A stretch of 64,000 nt of DNA from Desulfopila sp. (GTDB lineage: Bacteria; Desulfobacterota; Desulfobulbia; Desulfobulbales; Desulfocapsaceae): positions 1,318-65,317 of the forward strand of contig JBFHGS010000003.1 in assembly GCA_041582995.1 (NCBI GenBank), in the 5' to 3' direction. Positions 44,542 to 55,089 of this stretch are shown here, one piece after another. The stretch's first letter is position 1; each line of letters opens with the position of its first letter. The translations under genes were made by a program, and so were the position numbers. The notes under the pieces were generated by a model that made no database searches, had not been told where the DNA came from, and saw only the letters and a program-made list of their open reading frames with translations.

Positions 44542-45669
44542 CTAGAACCCATCTAGTTTATAGCAGTTTTCACATCCGGCCGGTGGCGGGTGATCAGCGA
44601 AATATGACTCTATGTGTCTAATCGCCCGCTTCAGTTCTTGAGCGCCTGCAATTGAATAGCTCACCTTGGAAAGCAAACTGTCATGGAAATGCAAACGTCT
44701 TCTATAAGCATCTCTAAAAAATACATATGGTGCAGATTTCCAGATTTCTTCGAGACTATTGTCACGAAGGTTGCCGAAGATCAGGTTCTCACTCTTTTTT
44801 ACACAACCTTCATGATGCCAGGTTATCCCTCCCCGCACCGGAGTTGATAAAAACACGCATGGAGAAACCTCTCCCCGCACATTTATGAAAATATTGTGTA
44901 AAGGATTCTTATCACACACCGGGGTTAATTCTGTCGAGAAAGGAGCAAGTTTAAGGCGCATCTTGCCAAACAGTGACCTCAGTCGGCTCTGCAGGCGCAA
45001 CCCTCTATATTTAAACGGCAGAGCCAGTGGAAGATGAAAACGTAAAGCCTGCTGCTCATCATTTGCAACCTGAGTCAGATGAATCGTGGCAAATAAGTCT
45101 ACATCGTTTTTTCGGCACCATGTAATTGCTTCAGGGATTTCCTCTACAGTTTCAGCTGTCACCAGATAGCTTACTCCCAATTCAAGCGTACTATCCCGGC
45201 TTTGCCTTCGAGCTTCTGCTATCATTGCAATAGCCTCATGCACCTTCCCGCTGGTTCCCCGGCCACGCAATACATCCTGGACCCCAACACTGTTACCAGC
45301 CATTGAAAAAGTAATACCATCAAGACCCACCTTGAGGTACTCTTTAGCCGTCGGATAATCAAGCAGTGTACCATTACTGGTAAGACTTACGTGTAGCCCA
45401 CGTTCTTTTATACAAGATATATGTTTCAGGGTATCCGTATGCAACAGCGGCTCACCCCAACCCTGAAGATGGATCAGTGATTCTCCTGGCAACTGGTCAA
45501 TGATTGCTATAAACAGATCAAAATCCATATCCTCTTCCTGCCATTGATCAAGGAAATATGGCTTTAAGCACGTTTTACAGTTGAGATTACAGCGGCTGGT
45601 TGTTTCAAGCTGTATGCAGCTAGGTACATCAAAAGCAGTATCAGTAAATGTGCAGGGTCTCGTAACCAT
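44542..45669 (-). CDS. radical SAM enzyme with C-terminal SPASM/twitch-like Cys cluster
   Basis: CxxxCxxC motif in ETTSRCNLNCKTC. GGEPLL-like GWGEPLL. C-terminal Cys (CDKN...VSPCVF...GCENCYKLDG). Confidence 0.8.
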   Translation of the reverse strand: MVTRPCTFTDTAFDVPSCIQLETTSRCNLNCKTCLKPYFLDQWQEEDMDFDLFIAIIDQLPGESLIHLQGWGEPLLHTDTLKHISCIKERGLHVSLTSNGTLLDYPTAKEYLKVGLDGITFSMAGNSVGVQDVLRGRGTSGKVHEAIAMIAEARRQSRDSTLELGVSYLVTAETVEEIPEAITWCRKNDVDLFATIHLTQVANDEQQALRFHLPLALPFKYRGLRLQSRLRSLFGKMRLKLAPFSTELTPVCDKNPLHNIFINVRGEVSPCVFLSTPVRGGITWHHEGCVKKSENLIFGNLRDNSLEEIWKSAPYVFFRDAYRRRLHFHDSLLSKVSYSIAGAQELKRAIRHIESYFADHPPPAGCENCYKLDGF

Positions 45670-46398: not shown

Positions 46399-47793
46399 TT
46401 ATTTAAGAAGTTTTTTCACATGAGAGGAGAGCGTTATTTCTCCACGTCCCCTGTACATTTCGTGGTTCTTCTCGATCTGCGACAATTTATAGAGATAATT
46501 AACCATAATACCTGCTGACTGTTCCATTCCCGCCTGTGTCTGGTTCGCACCCCAGTTAATTCTCTCTATCTGAGCTCCATTCGAAAGATGAAAATGAGCA
46601 ACCCGGTCATAGGCCTGATCACCTCTCTTAGCCAAAGCAAGATAGCGGGCACACAGTGTTAACAACAAATTCTTCAGGGTCTCTGCATTTGAAGCACCAT
46701 CATCCTCGCCCGAGCTCTCAACCATCCGGCTAAGAACCTCTATCGGGTCATCAGCTGATTGCACAGATTCCCAAAGTTCACGTTCTTTATTACCAAGATC
46801 AAAAGACTCGTCCTGACCTCGCAACCACGTAAGAAACCCTGGAATTGGTGATAAAGTCGAAAAGTTTTTAAGATTGGGAAGCTTTGCAGTCAAATCTGCA
46901 ACGACACGCTTAATGAGGAAATTACCAAAACTTACTCCTGCAAGTCCCTTCTGACAGTTGGAGATAGAGTAGAAAATAGCAGTATCTGATTTCAAAGGGT
47001 CTTCAATCGGTGCGTGCACATCAAGAAGTTCCTGCACATTATCAGAAATACCACTCACAAGAGCAACTTCTACGAAGATAAGCGGCTCATCAGGCATTCG
47101 TGGATGAAAAAACGCATAGCATCGGCGATCTTCACGTAACCTGTTTTTCATATCTGCCCATGATGAAATCTCATGTACAGATTCATATTTAATAAGTTTT
47201 TCAAGAATAGCGGCAGGGGTATCCCAGGTAATACGTCTCAAATCAAGAAAACCTATATCAAACCACGATACCAGCAATCGGTGCACATCCTGATCAAGTG
47301 CCTTCAGTTCATTGTCCTTCCTGGACCAAGGAATAAGTTCTGCCCGCAGATCCACCAGAAACTTCACACCTTCCTTAAGCTCATTAAACTGCTGAAATAA
47401 TCTGGCCCGTGGTGGATCTAGCAGCAGTCTCAGTTTTTGATTGGCAGCCTGAAGTTCGAGTGGAGAAGTGATACTATTTCTGGCTTCGATAGCCTTTTCA
47501 ACAGCTACATTATCAACATCATACTCTCTGGCCAGCAGTTGCAGAAATTTGAATCGTCCATCTGCACCAAGAACAAGGTAGGCGCGCCCAAGTTCAGCTG
47601 CCCTACTACGCGCTGACACCTCACCACCTCTTCCTCCGAGACAGGCACTAATTGCACGTCGCAATACATTCAGATCACTATCAGGAAGATCTACATGTAT
47701 TTTGTCTTTCAGTTCGTTTTGTTCACCAAGTGGCCAGATTTCGCGAATAAGCCGTAGTGTCCTGTCCCAGAAAGGTTCTTCAGCTATATACAT
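46399..47793 (-). CDS. malonyl-CoA decarboxylase
   Basis: FYSISNCQKGLAGVSFGNFLIKRV and HFHLSNGA motifs characteristic of the MCD family. 464 aa. Confidence 0.85.
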   Translation of the reverse strand: MYIAEEPFWDRTLRLIREIWPLGEQNELKDKIHVDLPDSDLNVLRRAISACLGGRGGEVSARSRAAELGRAYLVLGADGRFKFLQLLAREYDVDNVAVEKAIEARNSITSPLELQAANQKLRLLLDPPRARLFQQFNELKEGVKFLVDLRAELIPWSRKDNELKALDQDVHRLLVSWFDIGFLDLRRITWDTPAAILEKLIKYESVHEISSWADMKNRLREDRRCYAFFHPRMPDEPLIFVEVALVSGISDNVQELLDVHAPIEDPLKSDTAIFYSISNCQKGLAGVSFGNFLIKRVVADLTAKLPNLKNFSTLSPIPGFLTWLRGQDESFDLGNKERELWESVQSADDPIEVLSRMVESSGEDDGASNAETLKNLLLTLCARYLALAKRGDQAYDRVAHFHLSNGAQIERINWGANQTQAGMEQSAGIMVNYLYKLSQIEKNHEMYRGRGEITLSSHVKKLLK

Positions 47794-48196: not shown

Positions 48197-48247
48197 AACA
48201 CAACGTGGAAAAAAATAAGCAGCCCAATATTGGGACAAAACACCAGA
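48197..48247 (-). terminator. rho-independent terminator after the symporter gene
   Basis: On minus strand GCAGCCCAAT-19 nt-ATTGGGCTGC followed by TTATTTTTTTCC. Confidence 0.8.
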
Positions 48248-48266
48248 ATTGGGCTGCGCGATAATA

Positions 48267-50168
48267 TCAGCTAGCGTGTCCTGAAAAACATGAAATATGG
48301 CTTCGCAGTGTATTTTCAACCTCTGAATATGCCACCACCACTTCACGTTGTAATTCTTTCAGAGTGCAGGTCGTACCTTCAATCTCAATCCACGCATTTG
48401 CAGCAGCTTCGCCGCGAATAAGTGAGGCACAGGAAAGAATATCCGGCCGGGTACATCGTCGAATCGAATCCACTCCTGATAACGAAATCCAGTGCCCGTG
48501 AGTTGCTGACATTAGCCTGATAAAGTCATGCCAGGCCATATTCACCGGCAAATCAACACTTACCTGCAAATAGACCTGATTGCCCTGAATGACCTCAACA
48601 AGATCATGAGTAACTGGAAGTATTGTTTCCGGATCATTCACGGCGCTGACCTCGACAAGCTCTTTTGCCTTATCAGCAAAGAACGGCGCAAGACGATAGA
48701 TCGGAGACGGCGTAGTAACGAGGGAAACACTCACATATACAATTCCGCTCAAAGCCATGGCTACAATTACACCGTGTCCCATCAATAACGGGTTAATTAT
48801 CTCCAGCGCCGGTGGTGCACCGGCAGGTGTATACATGATATCATATACTACCAGACCGCACTGACTGAAAAATCCTGTAAACATTGAGGCTGTAGCCCCT
48901 TCCGCCGTCCCTCTTCTCCAGTACATACCTCCCATAAGCACAAAAAAGTACGAGGCGCTGGCGATGAAGGTTGCAATATGTATAGCATCAATAATTGAAT
49001 TAATAAAAAATGAGCCTACAGTTGCGCTGGCAATAATACATAACACACTCAACCTGTTGACAGTCAACATCTCTTTCATTGACGCTGCGGGGTTAAACTG
49101 ACGCTGGTAGATATCACGTGAAATACATGACGCACCCGAGGCTGCAAAAGTATCCGCGCATGACATAGCTGCAGTAGCCAGAGCTATCGCACAAAGAGCG
49201 ATCATAATGTCTGAATAATCCTGTGACATTATAAAATTGAGCAATGCCGGTTCCGCTTTACCCATCCCCATAGGAAACCCCATACCAGCTATATCCGGGT
49301 AAATCACCCGTAATCCCAGTGCAATAAATGCACAACCTGCAAAAACTACTGCTACGAGAAACGAACCCAGTATCATTCCCGTTCTGGCAGACTTCACATC
49401 CCGCGCTGCCCATATTTTTTGCCAGGGATCCTGTTCTGTAATCCAACCTGGAATAATTGCGATGGAGAATATCAGAACCATCGGTAAGCCGATAGACATA
49501 GGATTCCACCATGATACATCCATTGCGGTCACCATCTGCGTAACACTTTGCCCGGAGACCTCGCCTGCTCCACCAAGTACCAGAAACGACATTAATAGTA
49601 CAAAAAATGACAGGCAGAGAAATTGAATGACATCTGTTGTAATAACTGCAGATAAACCTCCCAGCGTAACATAGACTGCCACAGAAAGGCCGACAATCAA
49701 CGCAGCCTGCAGACTGCTGATTCCATAAAACACCTGCAGTACCATGGCAAAACCTTTAATGTCCGCCACAGCAAAGAGAATCATGACTACGATAATTATG
49801 AGCGCCACAGGTGTTCTCAGAAAAGAACCATACCGGATTTCAAGCAATTCCGGCTGAGTCATCGCAGGGATTGATTTTATCTTTTTGACAAAGATGGCGA
49901 TAATCAACAACGCCAGAATATTTGGTGCCACAAAGCCCCAGATAGATCCCATACCAAGCAGGATAAATAAACCAGTTACTGCAAGCAGGGCACCGGCAGT
50001 TAGCCAGGAGGCCGCAGCTGAGAAACCGATGGATATTGCTCCAGCCCGTTTGCCTGCCAGTAGAAATTCTCTCAGCGATATCTGACGTTTGTTAAAATAA
50101 TAGCCTGTAGCAACCAGAAAAGCGATGTAGCCAGCCAGCAACACCATGAAAATTGGATACCCGTTCAT
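48267..50168 (-). CDS. sodium:solute symporter (SSF) family transporter with roughly 150-aa C-terminal soluble extension
   Basis: Typical SSF N-terminus (YFNKRQISLREFLLAGKRAG...SAAASWLTAG) and 13+ TM segments. Start set at MNGYPIF (ATG 50168, GGGAGGAAG upstream). The hydrophilic tail after about residue 490 has no recognisable motif. Confidence 0.85.
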   Translation of the reverse strand: MNGYPIFMVLLAGYIAFLVATGYYFNKRQISLREFLLAGKRAGAISIGFSAAASWLTAGALLAVTGLFILLGMGSIWGFVAPNILALLIIAIFVKKIKSIPAMTQPELLEIRYGSFLRTPVALIIIVVMILFAVADIKGFAMVLQVFYGISSLQAALIVGLSVAVYVTLGGLSAVITTDVIQFLCLSFFVLLMSFLVLGGAGEVSGQSVTQMVTAMDVSWWNPMSIGLPMVLIFSIAIIPGWITEQDPWQKIWAARDVKSARTGMILGSFLVAVVFAGCAFIALGLRVIYPDIAGMGFPMGMGKAEPALLNFIMSQDYSDIMIALCAIALATAAMSCADTFAASGASCISRDIYQRQFNPAASMKEMLTVNRLSVLCIIASATVGSFFINSIIDAIHIATFIASASYFFVLMGGMYWRRGTAEGATASMFTGFFSQCGLVVYDIMYTPAGAPPALEIINPLLMGHGVIVAMALSGIVYVSVSLVTTPSPIYRLAPFFADKAKELVEVSAVNDPETILPVTHDLVEVIQGNQVYLQVSVDLPVNMAWHDFIRLMSATHGHWISLSGVDSIRRCTRPDILSCASLIRGEAAANAWIEIEGTTCTLKELQREVVVAYSEVENTLRSHISCFSGHAS

Positions 50169-50240
50169 ACTTCCTCCCGGCAATGGTACGGAAACCTTTA
50201 GCAGTACAGTCCGTCGCATTGCGTACGTGTACGTCGGTAG

Positions 50241-50525
50241 AAATACAAAACCCCAAACCGACGCATGTCAGCCCGGGGATTTACCGTCTCTCCGAGAGAA
50301 ATAAGCTTGACTGGCAGATATTCTGACTCGTGAGTCACCCTCGGCCGCGCCTTCCCATTCTGTTTCGTAGGAGTGTCATTACAGAACAGTGGCTTTCTAT
50401 GCGGCGTCGTCATCACTTACAGCGGCGGGTCCGTTCCGGAGTCACACCGGATTCCCTGCAGGGTCATCTGCCTTTTTGGCATGATCACCCGGATCCTTGT
50501 TAAGGATCACCAGCTAGCCTCAGCT
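50241..50525 (-). promoter_or_regulatory. cobalamin (B12) riboswitch with terminator-type expression platform, in the 5' leader of the SSF transporter
   Basis: Minus strand reads ...AGGGAATCCGGTGTGACTCCGGAACGGACCCGCCGCTGTAA...GCCACTG...TGGGAAGGC...AGTCAGAATATCTGCC (B12 box). This is followed by hairpin CCCCGGGCTGAC-atgc-GTCGGTTTGGGG + TTTTGTATTT (50278..50241). Confidence 0.88.
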
Positions 50526-50931
50526 AGAATGTAGACCGGATGATCGTTTAACATCCGGCATCTTCTTCATTTATTGTAAATCCACTGCCCTGTCAAGCTC
50601 CATCTGAAGGTGATAACATGAACTTCACATCATCCCAACAGACTGATTCGATATGACTTTTGAACTCATTGCACACTTCGCGGCACAACAGTTCTTCTAT
50701 TGTGTAGTATTCAGACTCAAATGCGTTTCTCATGCAAACTCACATACACCGTCACACATATACGTATTTACGTATTTACATATTTACACATGAGCTTCTA
50801 TACTATTTTACGCCTTTACTTGCATATTCATATACGTACTGAAATGCCTGTTTCCATCCGGAAAAAATATCAGACTTAAAAGATCCAGGCGTGTGGTTAC
50901 TTTTGACGAAGACACATATATGATTCAGATT

Positions 50932-52804: not shown

Positions 52805-53977
52805 TTACAGAGCGGCTTTCAAAATCAGTCTGCAAATTTCAGGTGTAACATCCCCACTTTCAGAGAGCGCAGTCATACCATGTTTTTCCAGCGAGGCTAC
52901 AACTCTATCAATGTCCTTGTCACCAAGATCATGATCTGAAAGCCTCGTCTTTACTCCCAGACTATGGAAGAATTCCTCTGTCCTGGCGATAGCCTTATCA
53001 ATTCTTTCATCTTCACTGCCGTCAGCAATTCCCCAGACGCGTTCACCAAATTGCAGCAGTTTTGTACGCTTCTGCTCTTTTCGCACTTTCCATACTGCCG
53101 GTAATACTACAGCAAGAGTTCTTGCGTGATCAATGCCGAAGAGTGCCGTCATTTCATGCCCCATCATATGAGTAGACCAGTCCTGGGGTACACCCATACC
53201 GATAAGCCCATTCAGTGCTAGAGTAGCAGACCATACAAGATTTGCACGCGCATCGTAATCTTCTGGATTCTCAAGTGTTTTCTGACCAATTTCTATAAGA
53301 GTCTGCAGAATACCTTCGGCCATTCTGTCTTGCACTCTTCCTTCCACACCATAGGTCACGTACTGTTCGCACACATGGATAAAGGTGTCGACCACACCAT
53401 TTGCAACCTGCCTTGAGGGCAGTGTGTATGTAAGTACAGGATCGAGAATAGAAAATTTTGGAAAGGCAAGAACACTGTTCACAGGCAGCTTATCCTCACC
53501 ATTACTTATTACCGCAAAAGTATTGGCCTCAGACCCCGTAGCCGGCAAGGTCACAACTGTGCCGATCGGTACTGCACTCTTTACCGGGACGGGCATAAAG
53601 CCAAATTTAAGCAGCTCCTCCTCTTTACCGACAAACTCTTCTGCAAAGGAGGCAAGGGCCACAAATTTAGTGCCATCCATTACAGACCCACCACCGACAG
53701 CAAGAAGAAAATCAACCTTTTCCTTGCGTACCAGTTCTACTGCACCCATCAGAATCGAAAATTCCGGATTTGCACCAATACCACCAAACTCAAAAACTGT
53801 GCGTGACGATTTTGCCAGTTCCTTCTGTACTGTGGCTAACACCCCTGTTTTCCGGGCACTGCCACCGCCATAGGTGATGAGTACTCTGGCGTTTTTAGGC
53901 ACAAGATTATCAAGTTCCTGCAACTGGTCTTTACCAAAAACAATGTTGGTCGGATTATAAAAACTGAAATTCAACAT
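52805..53977 (-). CDS. yqhD: NADPH-dependent iron-type alcohol/aldehyde reductase
   Basis: Near full-length similarity to E. coli YqhD recalled from memory (ARVLITYGGGS..KTGVL, LPATGSE, LP.RQVANGVVD.F.H..EQYVT, VPQDW.TH..GHE.TA, ERVW.I..GS.DERID.AI). Confidence 0.88.
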   Translation of the reverse strand: MLNFSFYNPTNIVFGKDQLQELDNLVPKNARVLITYGGGSARKTGVLATVQKELAKSSRTVFEFGGIGANPEFSILMGAVELVRKEKVDFLLAVGGGSVMDGTKFVALASFAEEFVGKEEELLKFGFMPVPVKSAVPIGTVVTLPATGSEANTFAVISNGEDKLPVNSVLAFPKFSILDPVLTYTLPSRQVANGVVDTFIHVCEQYVTYGVEGRVQDRMAEGILQTLIEIGQKTLENPEDYDARANLVWSATLALNGLIGMGVPQDWSTHMMGHEMTALFGIDHARTLAVVLPAVWKVRKEQKRTKLLQFGERVWGIADGSEDERIDKAIARTEEFFHSLGVKTRLSDHDLGDKDIDRVVASLEKHGMTALSESGDVTPEICRLILKAAL

Positions 53978-54201
53978 ACAATTCTCCTTTCATACACGTA
54001 ATGCATGAGGTTCTATAGTGAAGCGTTCCATAACGGAGTGCTGCGTTCAGACTGCATGCTAATTTAAGGCAGACTGTATGAATGAAAAGACACATTACTG
54101 CTGATCTTATGCCTATTCCTACTTTCTTGCATAAATAATGTTATATTCCAAGACAACCTGATTATGATAAACGGGATGAACATTTTTACCAGGAGATCAC
54201 A

Positions 54202-55089
54202 ATGACAAATATAGCATCACTTATGAATGCACTGGCAAAACAGGATGGTTTCAACACTACCCTGCTTGCCGGTATAGGCATTTATAAAGCATCACAACCA
54301 CGCCCGCGGGAACCACTCTGCTATGAACAGGGGGTAATAATTGTTGGTCAGGGTTCAAAGCGCGTATTCCTGGGCAATACTGTATATGAATACAATCCGG
54401 ATAATTATCTGGTTCTTTCTGTTCCTATACCAGCAGAATGCGAAACAAAGGCAGCCGAGAATGAGCCAATGCTGGCCATGACGGTGGATATCGATATCGG
54501 TCTCCTGAATCGAATTATCGCTGAAATGGATAACCATATCAACCATGAGATGCTGGCAAAGCATGATAAACACAAAGGTCTTTTTCTGGCCTCAACAACC
54601 CCTGAGATCAAAGACACTGTCCATAGACTCCTTATGGTATTGCAATCCCCTCTTGACTGCAGCGTGATCGGACCCGGCATTGTACACGAACTCTTATACA
54701 GGATAATGTGCGGCGAAAATGCATCTTCCCTGTATGCACTTGCCATGAAAAATACCAACATTGCACGAGTCGACAAAGCACTGAAACTGATCCACTCGAG
54801 CTATCGCGAATCTATGGATGTCGACCGCCTTGCAGCTCTTGTGAACATGAGCCCATCAGCATTTCACCGCGCATTCAAAGATGTCACCTCATCCTCACCA
54901 ATCCAATATGTAAAAAAAATACGCCTCAGCAAAGCCAAAGCACTACTGATAGAAGAAGGGGCGCGGGTAAACGAGGCTGCTACTGAAGTGGGCTATGAAA
55001 GTGCAGCACAATTCAGCAGAGAATTCAAGCGATACTTCGGAACAAGTCCGGTTGAGTACATTAATGTAAACCGTTTGGCTCAAATGTGA
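54202..55089 (+). CDS. yqhC: AraC-family transcriptional regulator with AraC_N-type sensor domain (YqhC-like), divergent from yqhD
   Basis: C-terminal double HTH (SPSAFHRAFKDVTSSSPIQYVKKIRL...; GYESAAQFSREFKRYFGTSP). Divergent arrangement as in E. coli yqhC-yqhD. Confidence 0.75.
   Translation: MTNIASLMNALAKQDGFNTTLLAGIGIYKASQPRPREPLCYEQGVIIVGQGSKRVFLGNTVYEYNPDNYLVLSVPIPAECETKAAENEPMLAMTVDIDIGLLNRIIAEMDNHINHEMLAKHDKHKGLFLASTTPEIKDTVHRLLMVLQSPLDCSVIGPGIVHELLYRIMCGENASSLYALAMKNTNIARVDKALKLIHSSYRESMDVDRLAALVNMSPSAFHRAFKDVTSSSPIQYVKKIRLSKAKALLIEEGARVNEAATEVGYESAAQFSREFKRYFGTSPVEYINVNRLAQM

Follow-up and report, generated by a model that had tools for sequence, protein, structure and literature searches.

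Which compound is taken up by a secondary carrier whose gene stands behind a cobalamin riboswitch? The question is raised by one gene of the sodium:solute symporter (SSF) family in a 64,000-nucleotide stretch of Desulfopila sp. DNA (GenBank assembly GCA_041582995.1, contig JBFHGS010000003.1, positions 1,318 to 65,317; hereafter the window). The gene lies on the minus strand, is preceded by a cobalamin aptamer, and encodes a permease with a C-terminal extension. The gene context leads us to favor, with modest confidence, the view that this permease is repressed by cobamide and brings a lower-ligand precursor of the benzimidazole type into the cell.

The lower ligand attached to a corrinoid decides which cobamide is made and which organisms may use it, and exogenous benzimidazoles redirect cobamide structure (“guided biosynthesis”). 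To our knowledge no carrier of free lower-ligand bases is on record; in agreement with this, full-text searches of the literature turned up no report that connects cobalamin riboswitches or benzimidazole uptake with an SSF permease. The permease is probably the first candidate importer for a B12 lower-ligand building block. Being conserved and riboswitch-controlled, it makes lower-ligand uptake directly testable, and one orthologue, ACN14676, sits in the cultured and sequenced Desulforapulum autotrophicum HRM2. The proposal would add a new gene family to the B12 regulon and, if true, would allow cobamide salvage to be predicted better from the genomes of sulfate reducers, methanogens, and consortia of anaerobic methanotrophic (ANME) archaea.

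Predicted riboswitch control of an SSF permease

The cobalamin aptamer that the initial annotation had recognized from short motifs was confirmed. Rfam scanning of the whole window (gathering cut-off for RF00174, 31.5 bits) gave a match to the complete RF00174 model (Table 1), the sole Rfam match above gathering in the 64 kb. The motifs originally quoted (GGGAAUCCGGUG..., GCCACUG, GGGAAGGC, and the B12 box AGUCAGAAUAUCUGCC) all fall within conserved columns of the RF00174 alignment, and the B12 box matches the consensus. The terminator hairpin and U-tract that had been noted ahead of the Shine-Dalgarno (SD) sequence were likewise recovered, by a terminator scan and by folding. An alignment of 27 orthologous leaders showed compensatory (double) changes in 18 of the 47 predicted pairs.

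The expression platform, CUCGGAGAGAYGGUAAAUCCCCGGGCUGA..GUCGG, is nearly invariant in the same 27 leaders, its conservation being almost that of the aptamer core. In long leaders, including that of the window, it completes the terminator (..GGGGAUUUUUU). An anti-SD/SD helix forms instead in short leaders, between the 5' flank of the platform (CUUCYCGG) and the SD sequence CGGGAGG. The window leader also has a segment, UUUCUCUCGG (50301..50292), that is able to pair with the SD region CCGGGAGGAA. These pairings indicate that one platform serves termination in some species and SD sequestration in others. At high intracellular cobamide levels, ligand binding would favor the terminator or anti-SD conformation and the gene would be off; when cobamide is scarce, the transcript would be read through and the permease made.

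Homologues of the permease (54-88% identity) were found in two groups only, the Desulfobacterota and Methanosarcinales archaea. The bacterial holders include Desulforhopalus, Desulfopila, and Desulfotalea among the Desulfocapsaceae, and D. autotrophicum HRM2, Desulfobacula, and Desulfospira among the Desulfobacterales; the archaeal holders are Methanosarcina, Methanococcoides, Methanohalophilus, ANME-2, and ANME-3. A neighbor-joining tree resolved four bacterial subclades of the transporter.

The initial annotation had let its case hang on whether relatives share the linkage between riboswitch and SSF gene, and they do. We fetched 80 species-representative loci and scanned all 32 bacterial and 17 archaeal ones against Rfam. 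RF00174 (75-102 bits) lies on the same strand directly 5' of the transporter in 30 of the 32 bacterial loci, at 73-135 nt from the start codon in most and at up to 312 nt in three; of the two loci without an aptamer, L005 is cut off by the end of its contig and L041 is rearranged. In two cultured strains, too, the aptamer precedes the orthologue, with 100.7 bits for D. autotrophicum HRM2 and 74 bits for Desulfogranum japonicum. The 17 archaeal loci gave no Rfam match of any kind. Among the bacteria, genes whose proteins have diverged to 56-76% identity still keep the riboswitch, whereas nearly all flanking genes differ between lineages, which argues that the riboswitch-transporter pair is held by selection.

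That the gene encodes an SSF permease, as first annotated, is borne out by Pfam: PF00474 (SSF) matched residues 35-432 over its full length (profile positions 1-406 of 406) with 105.2 bits against a cut-off of 22.8. The superfamily model TIGR00813 scored 132 bits, under its 184-bit cut-off, and none of the named NCBIfam subfamilies was reached (PutP 71.7 bits versus a cut-off of 515, PanF 63 versus 328, ActP 51.6 versus 750, VC_2705 100.7 versus 320). PutP was the best equivalog match, far under its cut-off; by these scores the product falls outside every named NCBIfam SSF subfamily.

Hydropathy and the positive-inside rule predict 13 transmembrane (TM) segments with an N-out/C-in topology, and mean column identity is 61% across 23 homologues. 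Profile alignment matched the core over its length with vSGLT (2XQ2/3DH4, E 6e-25) and SiaT (5NV9, E 2e-20), placing it in their fold family, although the relationship is remote and their substrates, galactose and sialic acid, are unrelated. The A-x-x-S motif of TM8 aligns at the Na2 site: A333-A-M-S336-C337 corresponds to A361..S364-S365 of vSGLT and A339..S342-S343 of SiaT. Ser336, the first Na2-site serine, is invariant, but the second serine is replaced by an invariant Cys337, and Na+ coupling is a plausible possibility. A full-length AlphaFold2 (AF2) model reached a pLDDT of 64.5; its helix count agrees with a LeuT-type topology of 13-14 TM segments, and at this pLDDT neither the binding pocket nor the docking of the C-terminal domain could be read from it.

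Operon partners and the proposed substrate

When the open reading frames (ORFs) of all loci were called and clustered, a single recurrent functional association emerged. An operon headed by the transporter is present at 13 loci, namely those of HRM2 and D. japonicum and 11 from the bacterial set of 32. Genes for BzaC-like, BzaD-like, and BzaE-like proteins come next, in that order and on the same strand; neighboring genes are 0-47 nt apart or their stop and start codons overlap. The BzaC-like partner (508 aa) combines an O-methyltransferase with DUF2284. The BzaD-like partner is a B12-binding radical-SAM protein of ~443 aa that scores 401 bits (E 8e-120) with the BzaD model TIGR04385, against a cut-off of 450 bits, and the BzaE-like partner is a radical-SAM paralogue of ~495-520 aa. 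This link occurs in three of the four bacterial subclades and in both tail-bearing and tail-less forms of the transporter.

BzaC, BzaD, and BzaE act in turn in the anaerobic pathway that leads from 5-hydroxybenzimidazole towards 5,6-dimethylbenzimidazole (PMC6461909, PMC7617358). The HRM2 transporter, ACN14676.1, adjoins ACN14675.1, which the PMC6461909 supplement gives as bzaC, together with WP_022669285.1 of Desulfospira; both are 508 aa long. With the published BzaC model, Desulfobacterota BzaC-like proteins reach 244-296 bits, versus ~400 bits for those of Firmicutes.

Further bza-type genes were met apart from this operon. The L016 genome has a separate bzaCDE set beside a CobQ/CbiP-like gene and a riboswitch-controlled TonB receptor, and Desulfonema has a separate bzaCDE set with a cobalamin riboswitch of its own. 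In a Desulfobacterales metagenome-assembled genome (L030, 929-2536), a ThiC-family gene (434 aa), presumably bzaF, lies 2.4 kb upstream of the riboswitch-SSF unit and is driven by a cobalamin riboswitch of its own (80 bits), the second at this locus; in an ANME-2 contig the transporter is followed, after 0.7 kb, by a gene of the ThiC family. The NCBIfam models score the L030 gene as ThiC, and in neither case can they separate ThiC from BzaF. HRM2 has bzaF as well as the SSF-bzaC-bzaD-bzaE operon, yet the cobamide reported for it is 5-methylbenzimidazolyl-cobamide (PMC6461909, supplement file 7).

The likeliest core substrate is 5-hydroxybenzimidazole, on three grounds: it serves the co-transcribed BzaC-like enzyme as substrate; holders in which bzaF alone is found, for example Desulfopila, are predicted to end with it, as far as the accessible supplement goes; and methanogen cobamides carry it as their lower ligand (PMC7617358). 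The base is thereby common to all holders, the Methanosarcinales being known to use 5-hydroxybenzimidazolyl-cobamide. Both groups that hold the transporter conserve BzaF (PMC7617358). The riboside of the base is possibly the substrate instead, base and riboside being inseparable by sequence. The permease would use a Na+ (or H+) gradient to take a benzimidazole-type base from the sediment, and the base would either be used directly for nucleotide-loop assembly or, where BzaC, BzaD, and BzaE are encoded, first be methylated by them.

Precedents exist for the kind of system proposed. ThiV, a PanF-like SSF permease behind a thiamine pyrophosphate riboswitch (THI-element), is predicted to salvage the thiamine pyrimidine precursor (PMC2211319). 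As proposed here, a vitamin-sensing riboswitch represses a secondary carrier of the SSF superfamily for a heterocyclic vitamin precursor (PMC2211319), and the two precursors are biosynthetic cousins, BzaF and ThiC being paralogues that both start from 5-aminoimidazole ribotide (PMC7617358). The riboswitch class and the vitamin differ, and the window protein scores only 63 bits with the PanF model against a cut-off of 328. Uptake of a pre-formed lower-ligand moiety has been described only for CblT/CblS of Firmicutes, a member of the B12 regulon (PMC6461909); unlike the permease, CblT is by its description another type of transporter, carries the riboside, and needs the kinase CblS, and no CblS-like gene was seen at our loci. 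The operon partners recall the bza operon of the Eubacterium limosum type (bzaAB or bzaF, cobT, bzaC, bzaD, bzaE) in that the BzaC/D/E-like genes of the relatives lie behind the same riboswitch class, but in Desulfobacterota bzaF is elsewhere, the permease takes the first position, and the window has the permease only. BtuB, BtuFCD, ECF-CbrT, and BtuM are repressed by the same riboswitch class; they carry whole corrinoids of ~1-1.6 kDa, whereas an SSF/LeuT-fold carrier suits small solutes, and they show no homology to it. A 2004 reconstruction of the delta-proteobacterial B12 regulon lists cbi, btu, and nrdDG targets only (PMC545781). Seen against these systems, what would be new is an uncharacterized SSF subfamily with a novel C-terminal domain acting as a riboswitch-controlled vitamin-precursor salvage carrier, a kind of carrier already known from ThiV and CblT.

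In a more specific version, free benzimidazole bases, with 5-hydroxybenzimidazole at their core, would have in this permease their first dedicated importer, an ion-coupled carrier of high affinity common to marine sulfate reducers and to Methanosarcinales and ANME archaea, and its C-terminal domain would be a new small-ligand sensor that closes the carrier when the intracellular base or cobamide pool is full. Lower-ligand bases would then be scavenged and traded in anoxic sediments instead of diffusing passively. This version we offer tentatively, at rather less than even confidence.

Evidence against the assignment and alternative substrates

Several observations weigh against import of a benzimidazole-type precursor. 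Small benzimidazoles are generally assumed to cross membranes unaided. The substrate is deduced from gene neighborhood alone, and the OFF direction of the switch is taken from the behavior of the riboswitch class. In the nine loci of the window's own subclade bzaCDE never adjoins the transporter; a tblastn search of the window found no bzaC, bzaD, bzaE, or bzaF homologue; and the archaeal neighbors give no clear cobamide signal save at one locus. D. autotrophicum, Desulfospira, and Desulfopila also encode BzaF (PMC6461909, supplement), and holders with BzaF can make 5-hydroxybenzimidazole, so that import would be salvage rather than a strict need. The idea that the transporter compensates for a missing BzaF was rejected for the presence of bzaF in HRM2, Desulfospira, and Desulfopila. 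Finally, the 5-methylbenzimidazolyl-cobamide that D. autotrophicum is reported to make (PMC6461909, supplement) lies off the canonical BzaC/D/E scheme and is not predicted by it.

The regulatory evidence would be identical if the permease imported another cobamide building block: alpha-ribazole, which would make it a functional analogue of CblT, an aminopropanol or threonine-derived linker, or 5-aminolevulinate. Members of the SSF family carry glycosides (vSGLT is the closest solved structure), so that a benzimidazole riboside is chemically plausible, and alpha-ribazole is an exchanged metabolite in the sea (PMC9296465). The operon partners, however, are base-tailoring enzymes and not cobT/cblS-type, linker, or tetrapyrrole genes, and a CblS-type kinase was not seen in the transporter flanks. 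We consider this alternative unlikely, while recognizing that its riboside variant overlaps with the benzimidazole proposal and is inseparable from it by sequence.

The permease might instead import a nutrient that bypasses a B12-dependent reaction, such as methionine when MetH is starved of its cofactor. An OFF-type cobalamin leader fits bypass genes equally well, as is established for metE and nrdDG (PMC545781, PMC2211319), and the logic would parallel that of riboswitch-repressed metE or nrdDG. SSF relatives include amino-acid carriers, PutP being the best (if far sub-threshold) equivalog match, and the window gene is monocistronic with no cobamide genes near it. Such a nutrient would leave unexplained both the co-transcription with BzaC/D/E-like genes, at 13 loci in three subclades, and the restriction of the permease to two groups that depend heavily on corrinoids; moreover, neither met nor nrd genes recur beside the bacterial transporter. 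We regard this alternative, too, as unlikely. Of the three substrate ideas first put forward for the gene, the lower ligand gained support from the operon, and the substrate of a B12-independent bypass found no positive support.

It is very unlikely that the substrate is unrelated to cobamides, the permease being a common carrier of osmolytes or carboxylates that happens to follow a riboswitch, and its bza neighbors being a legacy of shared ancestry at a few loci. In keeping with this idea, the family is without a characterized member, most neighbors are unrelated housekeeping genes, and the bza-linked loci are all from Desulfobacterota. But the riboswitch is kept in 30 of 32 loci despite protein divergence and complete reshuffling of the flanks, the compensatory changes in the leader point to selection on the linkage rather than to inertia, and the bza link spans three subclades with tail-bearing and tail-less forms.

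A safety valve that exports or re-captures a toxic BzaC/D/E intermediate is very improbable: the gene is co-expressed with enzymes that would produce such bases and 5,6-dimethylbenzimidazole is a flavin antagonist, toxic at high level in Salmonella (PMC10468695), but characterized SSF members are ion-coupled importers, S336 takes the place of the Na2-site serine in the alignment with vSGLT and SiaT, and many holders (among them the window's subclade and all archaea) have no bzaCDE nearby.

C-terminal domain, gene boundaries, and neighboring genes

The hydrophilic tail of the permease, initially put at about 150 residues with no recognizable motif, is in fact ~140 residues long and comprises a linker helix and a folded alpha+beta domain of ~110 residues (about 522-629); the lack of a motif held, since searches of the tail against Pfam, NCBIfam, and PDB sequences and profiles gave no match. 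Structure prediction with AF2 from 44 sequences yielded a confident fold (pLDDT 86, pTM 0.76) of the order b-b-a-b-b-b-long helix. It has no convincing solved relative: Foldseek found nothing in the PDB below E 1e-3 (best E 4.6e-3 at a TM-score of 0.44), and matches to SRPBCC/START-like proteins reached a TM-score of ~0.3 only. The domain is absent from vSGLT and SiaT, and we know of no comparable domain in ThiV.

A profile search of 1.84 billion representative proteins returned 38 matches to the domain, nearly all of them fragments of the same SSF family, so no function can be borrowed from elsewhere. One Desulfobacterales clade of the transporter lacks the domain. Being confined to the family and missing in one clade, it appears from these searches to be a novel, optional module specific to this SSF family, and it is of interest as a module predicted to fold confidently without a structural relative. 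Our guess is that it is regulatory or ligand-sensing and might provide post-translational feedback, through trans-inhibition by an intracellular product.

Table 1. Coordinates of the riboswitch, the SSF gene, and associated signals in the window
Feature	Position	Strand	Basis or description
Cobalamin riboswitch aptamer (RF00174)	50524..50296	-	Rfam cmscan, 85.9 bits, E 9.1e-20, model positions 1-189 of 189
Expression platform	50301..50241	-	Conserved element UUUCUCUCGGAGAGACGGUAAAUCCCCGGGCUGA..GUCGG, terminator hairpin, and U-tract
Leader terminator	50278..50251 (hairpin), 50250..50241 (U-tract)	-	12-bp G+C-rich hairpin, U-tract UUUUGUAUUU; terminator scan and folding
Candidate -35 box	50591..50596	-	TTGACA; read from sequence only
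Shine-Dalgarno sequence	50178..50173	-	GGGAGG, 4 nt 5' of ATG 50168; same place in orthologous leaders
SSF gene	50168..48267	-	633-aa product; core and C-terminal extension
SSF-family core	50168..48693	-	Residues 1-492, ~13 TM segments; Pfam, hydropathy
Cytoplasmic C-terminal extension	48692..48270	-	Residues 493-633; AF2 model, topology
Stop codon of SSF gene	48269..48267	-	TAG; sequence
Intrinsic terminator 3' of SSF gene	48257..48209	-	Stem 48257..48219, U-tract 48218..48209

The boundaries of the gene and its signals are collected in Table 1. The ATG at 50168 is taken as the start codon, its equivalent beginning all 22 of the 22 aligned homologues; a mechanical ORF list places the start at 50219 instead. 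The candidate -35 box is followed, 16-17 nt 3' of it and ~35 nt 5' of the aptamer, by a weak candidate -10 element (TAAATG/ATAAAT), and because of this poor -10 a promoter scan of the window did not report the TTGACA promoter. Short direct repeats with the unit GTAAATA(C/T)G occur at 50740..50800 (minus strand), within the 600 ORF-free nucleotides that lie 5' of the promoter region of the riboswitch.

The strong terminator that had been placed downstream of the gene exists, although at the coordinates of Table 1 and not at 48197..48247. It consists of a 10-bp stem, GCAGCCCAAU/AUUGGGCUGC, followed by UUAUUUUUUU, and folds at -23.4 kcal/mol (z -3.63; none of 200 shuffles folded equally well); the terminator scan missed this hairpin because its loop exceeds 8 nt. 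The next gene, encoding a malonyl-CoA decarboxylase (47793..46399, minus strand; Pfam MCD, 350 bits), begins after a gap of 474 nt. With its own terminator and this distance to the next gene, the SSF gene is monocistronic in the window, as the initial annotation had it.

The malonyl-CoA decarboxylase gene adjoins the SSF gene, on either side, in six Desulfocapsaceae loci (the window, L002, L003, L005, L007, and L010). It was rejected as an operon partner: the varying side, together with the terminator that lies between the two genes in the window and the riboswitch that lies between them in L007 and L010, indicates synteny and not co-transcription. Other neighbors (HlyD/GAF, patatin, helicase, TPR-sulfotransferase, P-type ATPase, IS605 transposase, DUF362, and HAD genes) were set aside as not recurrent or uninformative. 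In Desulfopila aestuarii (L003:6899-7579), the SSF stop codon is overlapped by a gene, probably co-transcribed, whose product has an FmdE domain and a DksA/TraR zinc finger; L035 has a homologue at a distance of 4 kb.

Around the archaeal orthologues, genes for DUF5803, a PTO1314-type radical SAM protein, a Mod ABC transporter, the Mtr operon, and ribosomal proteins represent lineage synteny with no clear message. In Methanosarcina (L040, L047, L055, L062, and ~15 more) the riboswitch-less orthologue has on one side a divergent ABC transporter of the Mod type, accompanied by a ModE-like regulator, and on the other mtrEDCBA, which begins ~1.6 kb downstream; MtrA is a major corrinoid protein, and plain synteny is possible. 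In three ANME-2 loci (L023, L032, and L037) a PRK06052-type ‘methionine synthase’ gene (MetE-core-like, 514 bits) lies divergently and directly upstream of the transporter.

Two further features of the window lie on either side of the riboswitch-SSF unit. At 45669..44542 (minus strand) is a gene for a radical SAM/SPASM protein, whose nearest families are putative metalloenzyme maturases and tungsten-cofactor oxidoreductase maturases, far below their cut-offs. At 52805..55089 a divergent pair encodes a YqhD-like iron alcohol/aldehyde reductase (NF011717, 534 bits versus a cut-off of 645) and an AraC-type regulator with an AraC_N domain, and resembles the enterobacterial yqhD/yqhC aldehyde-stress module.

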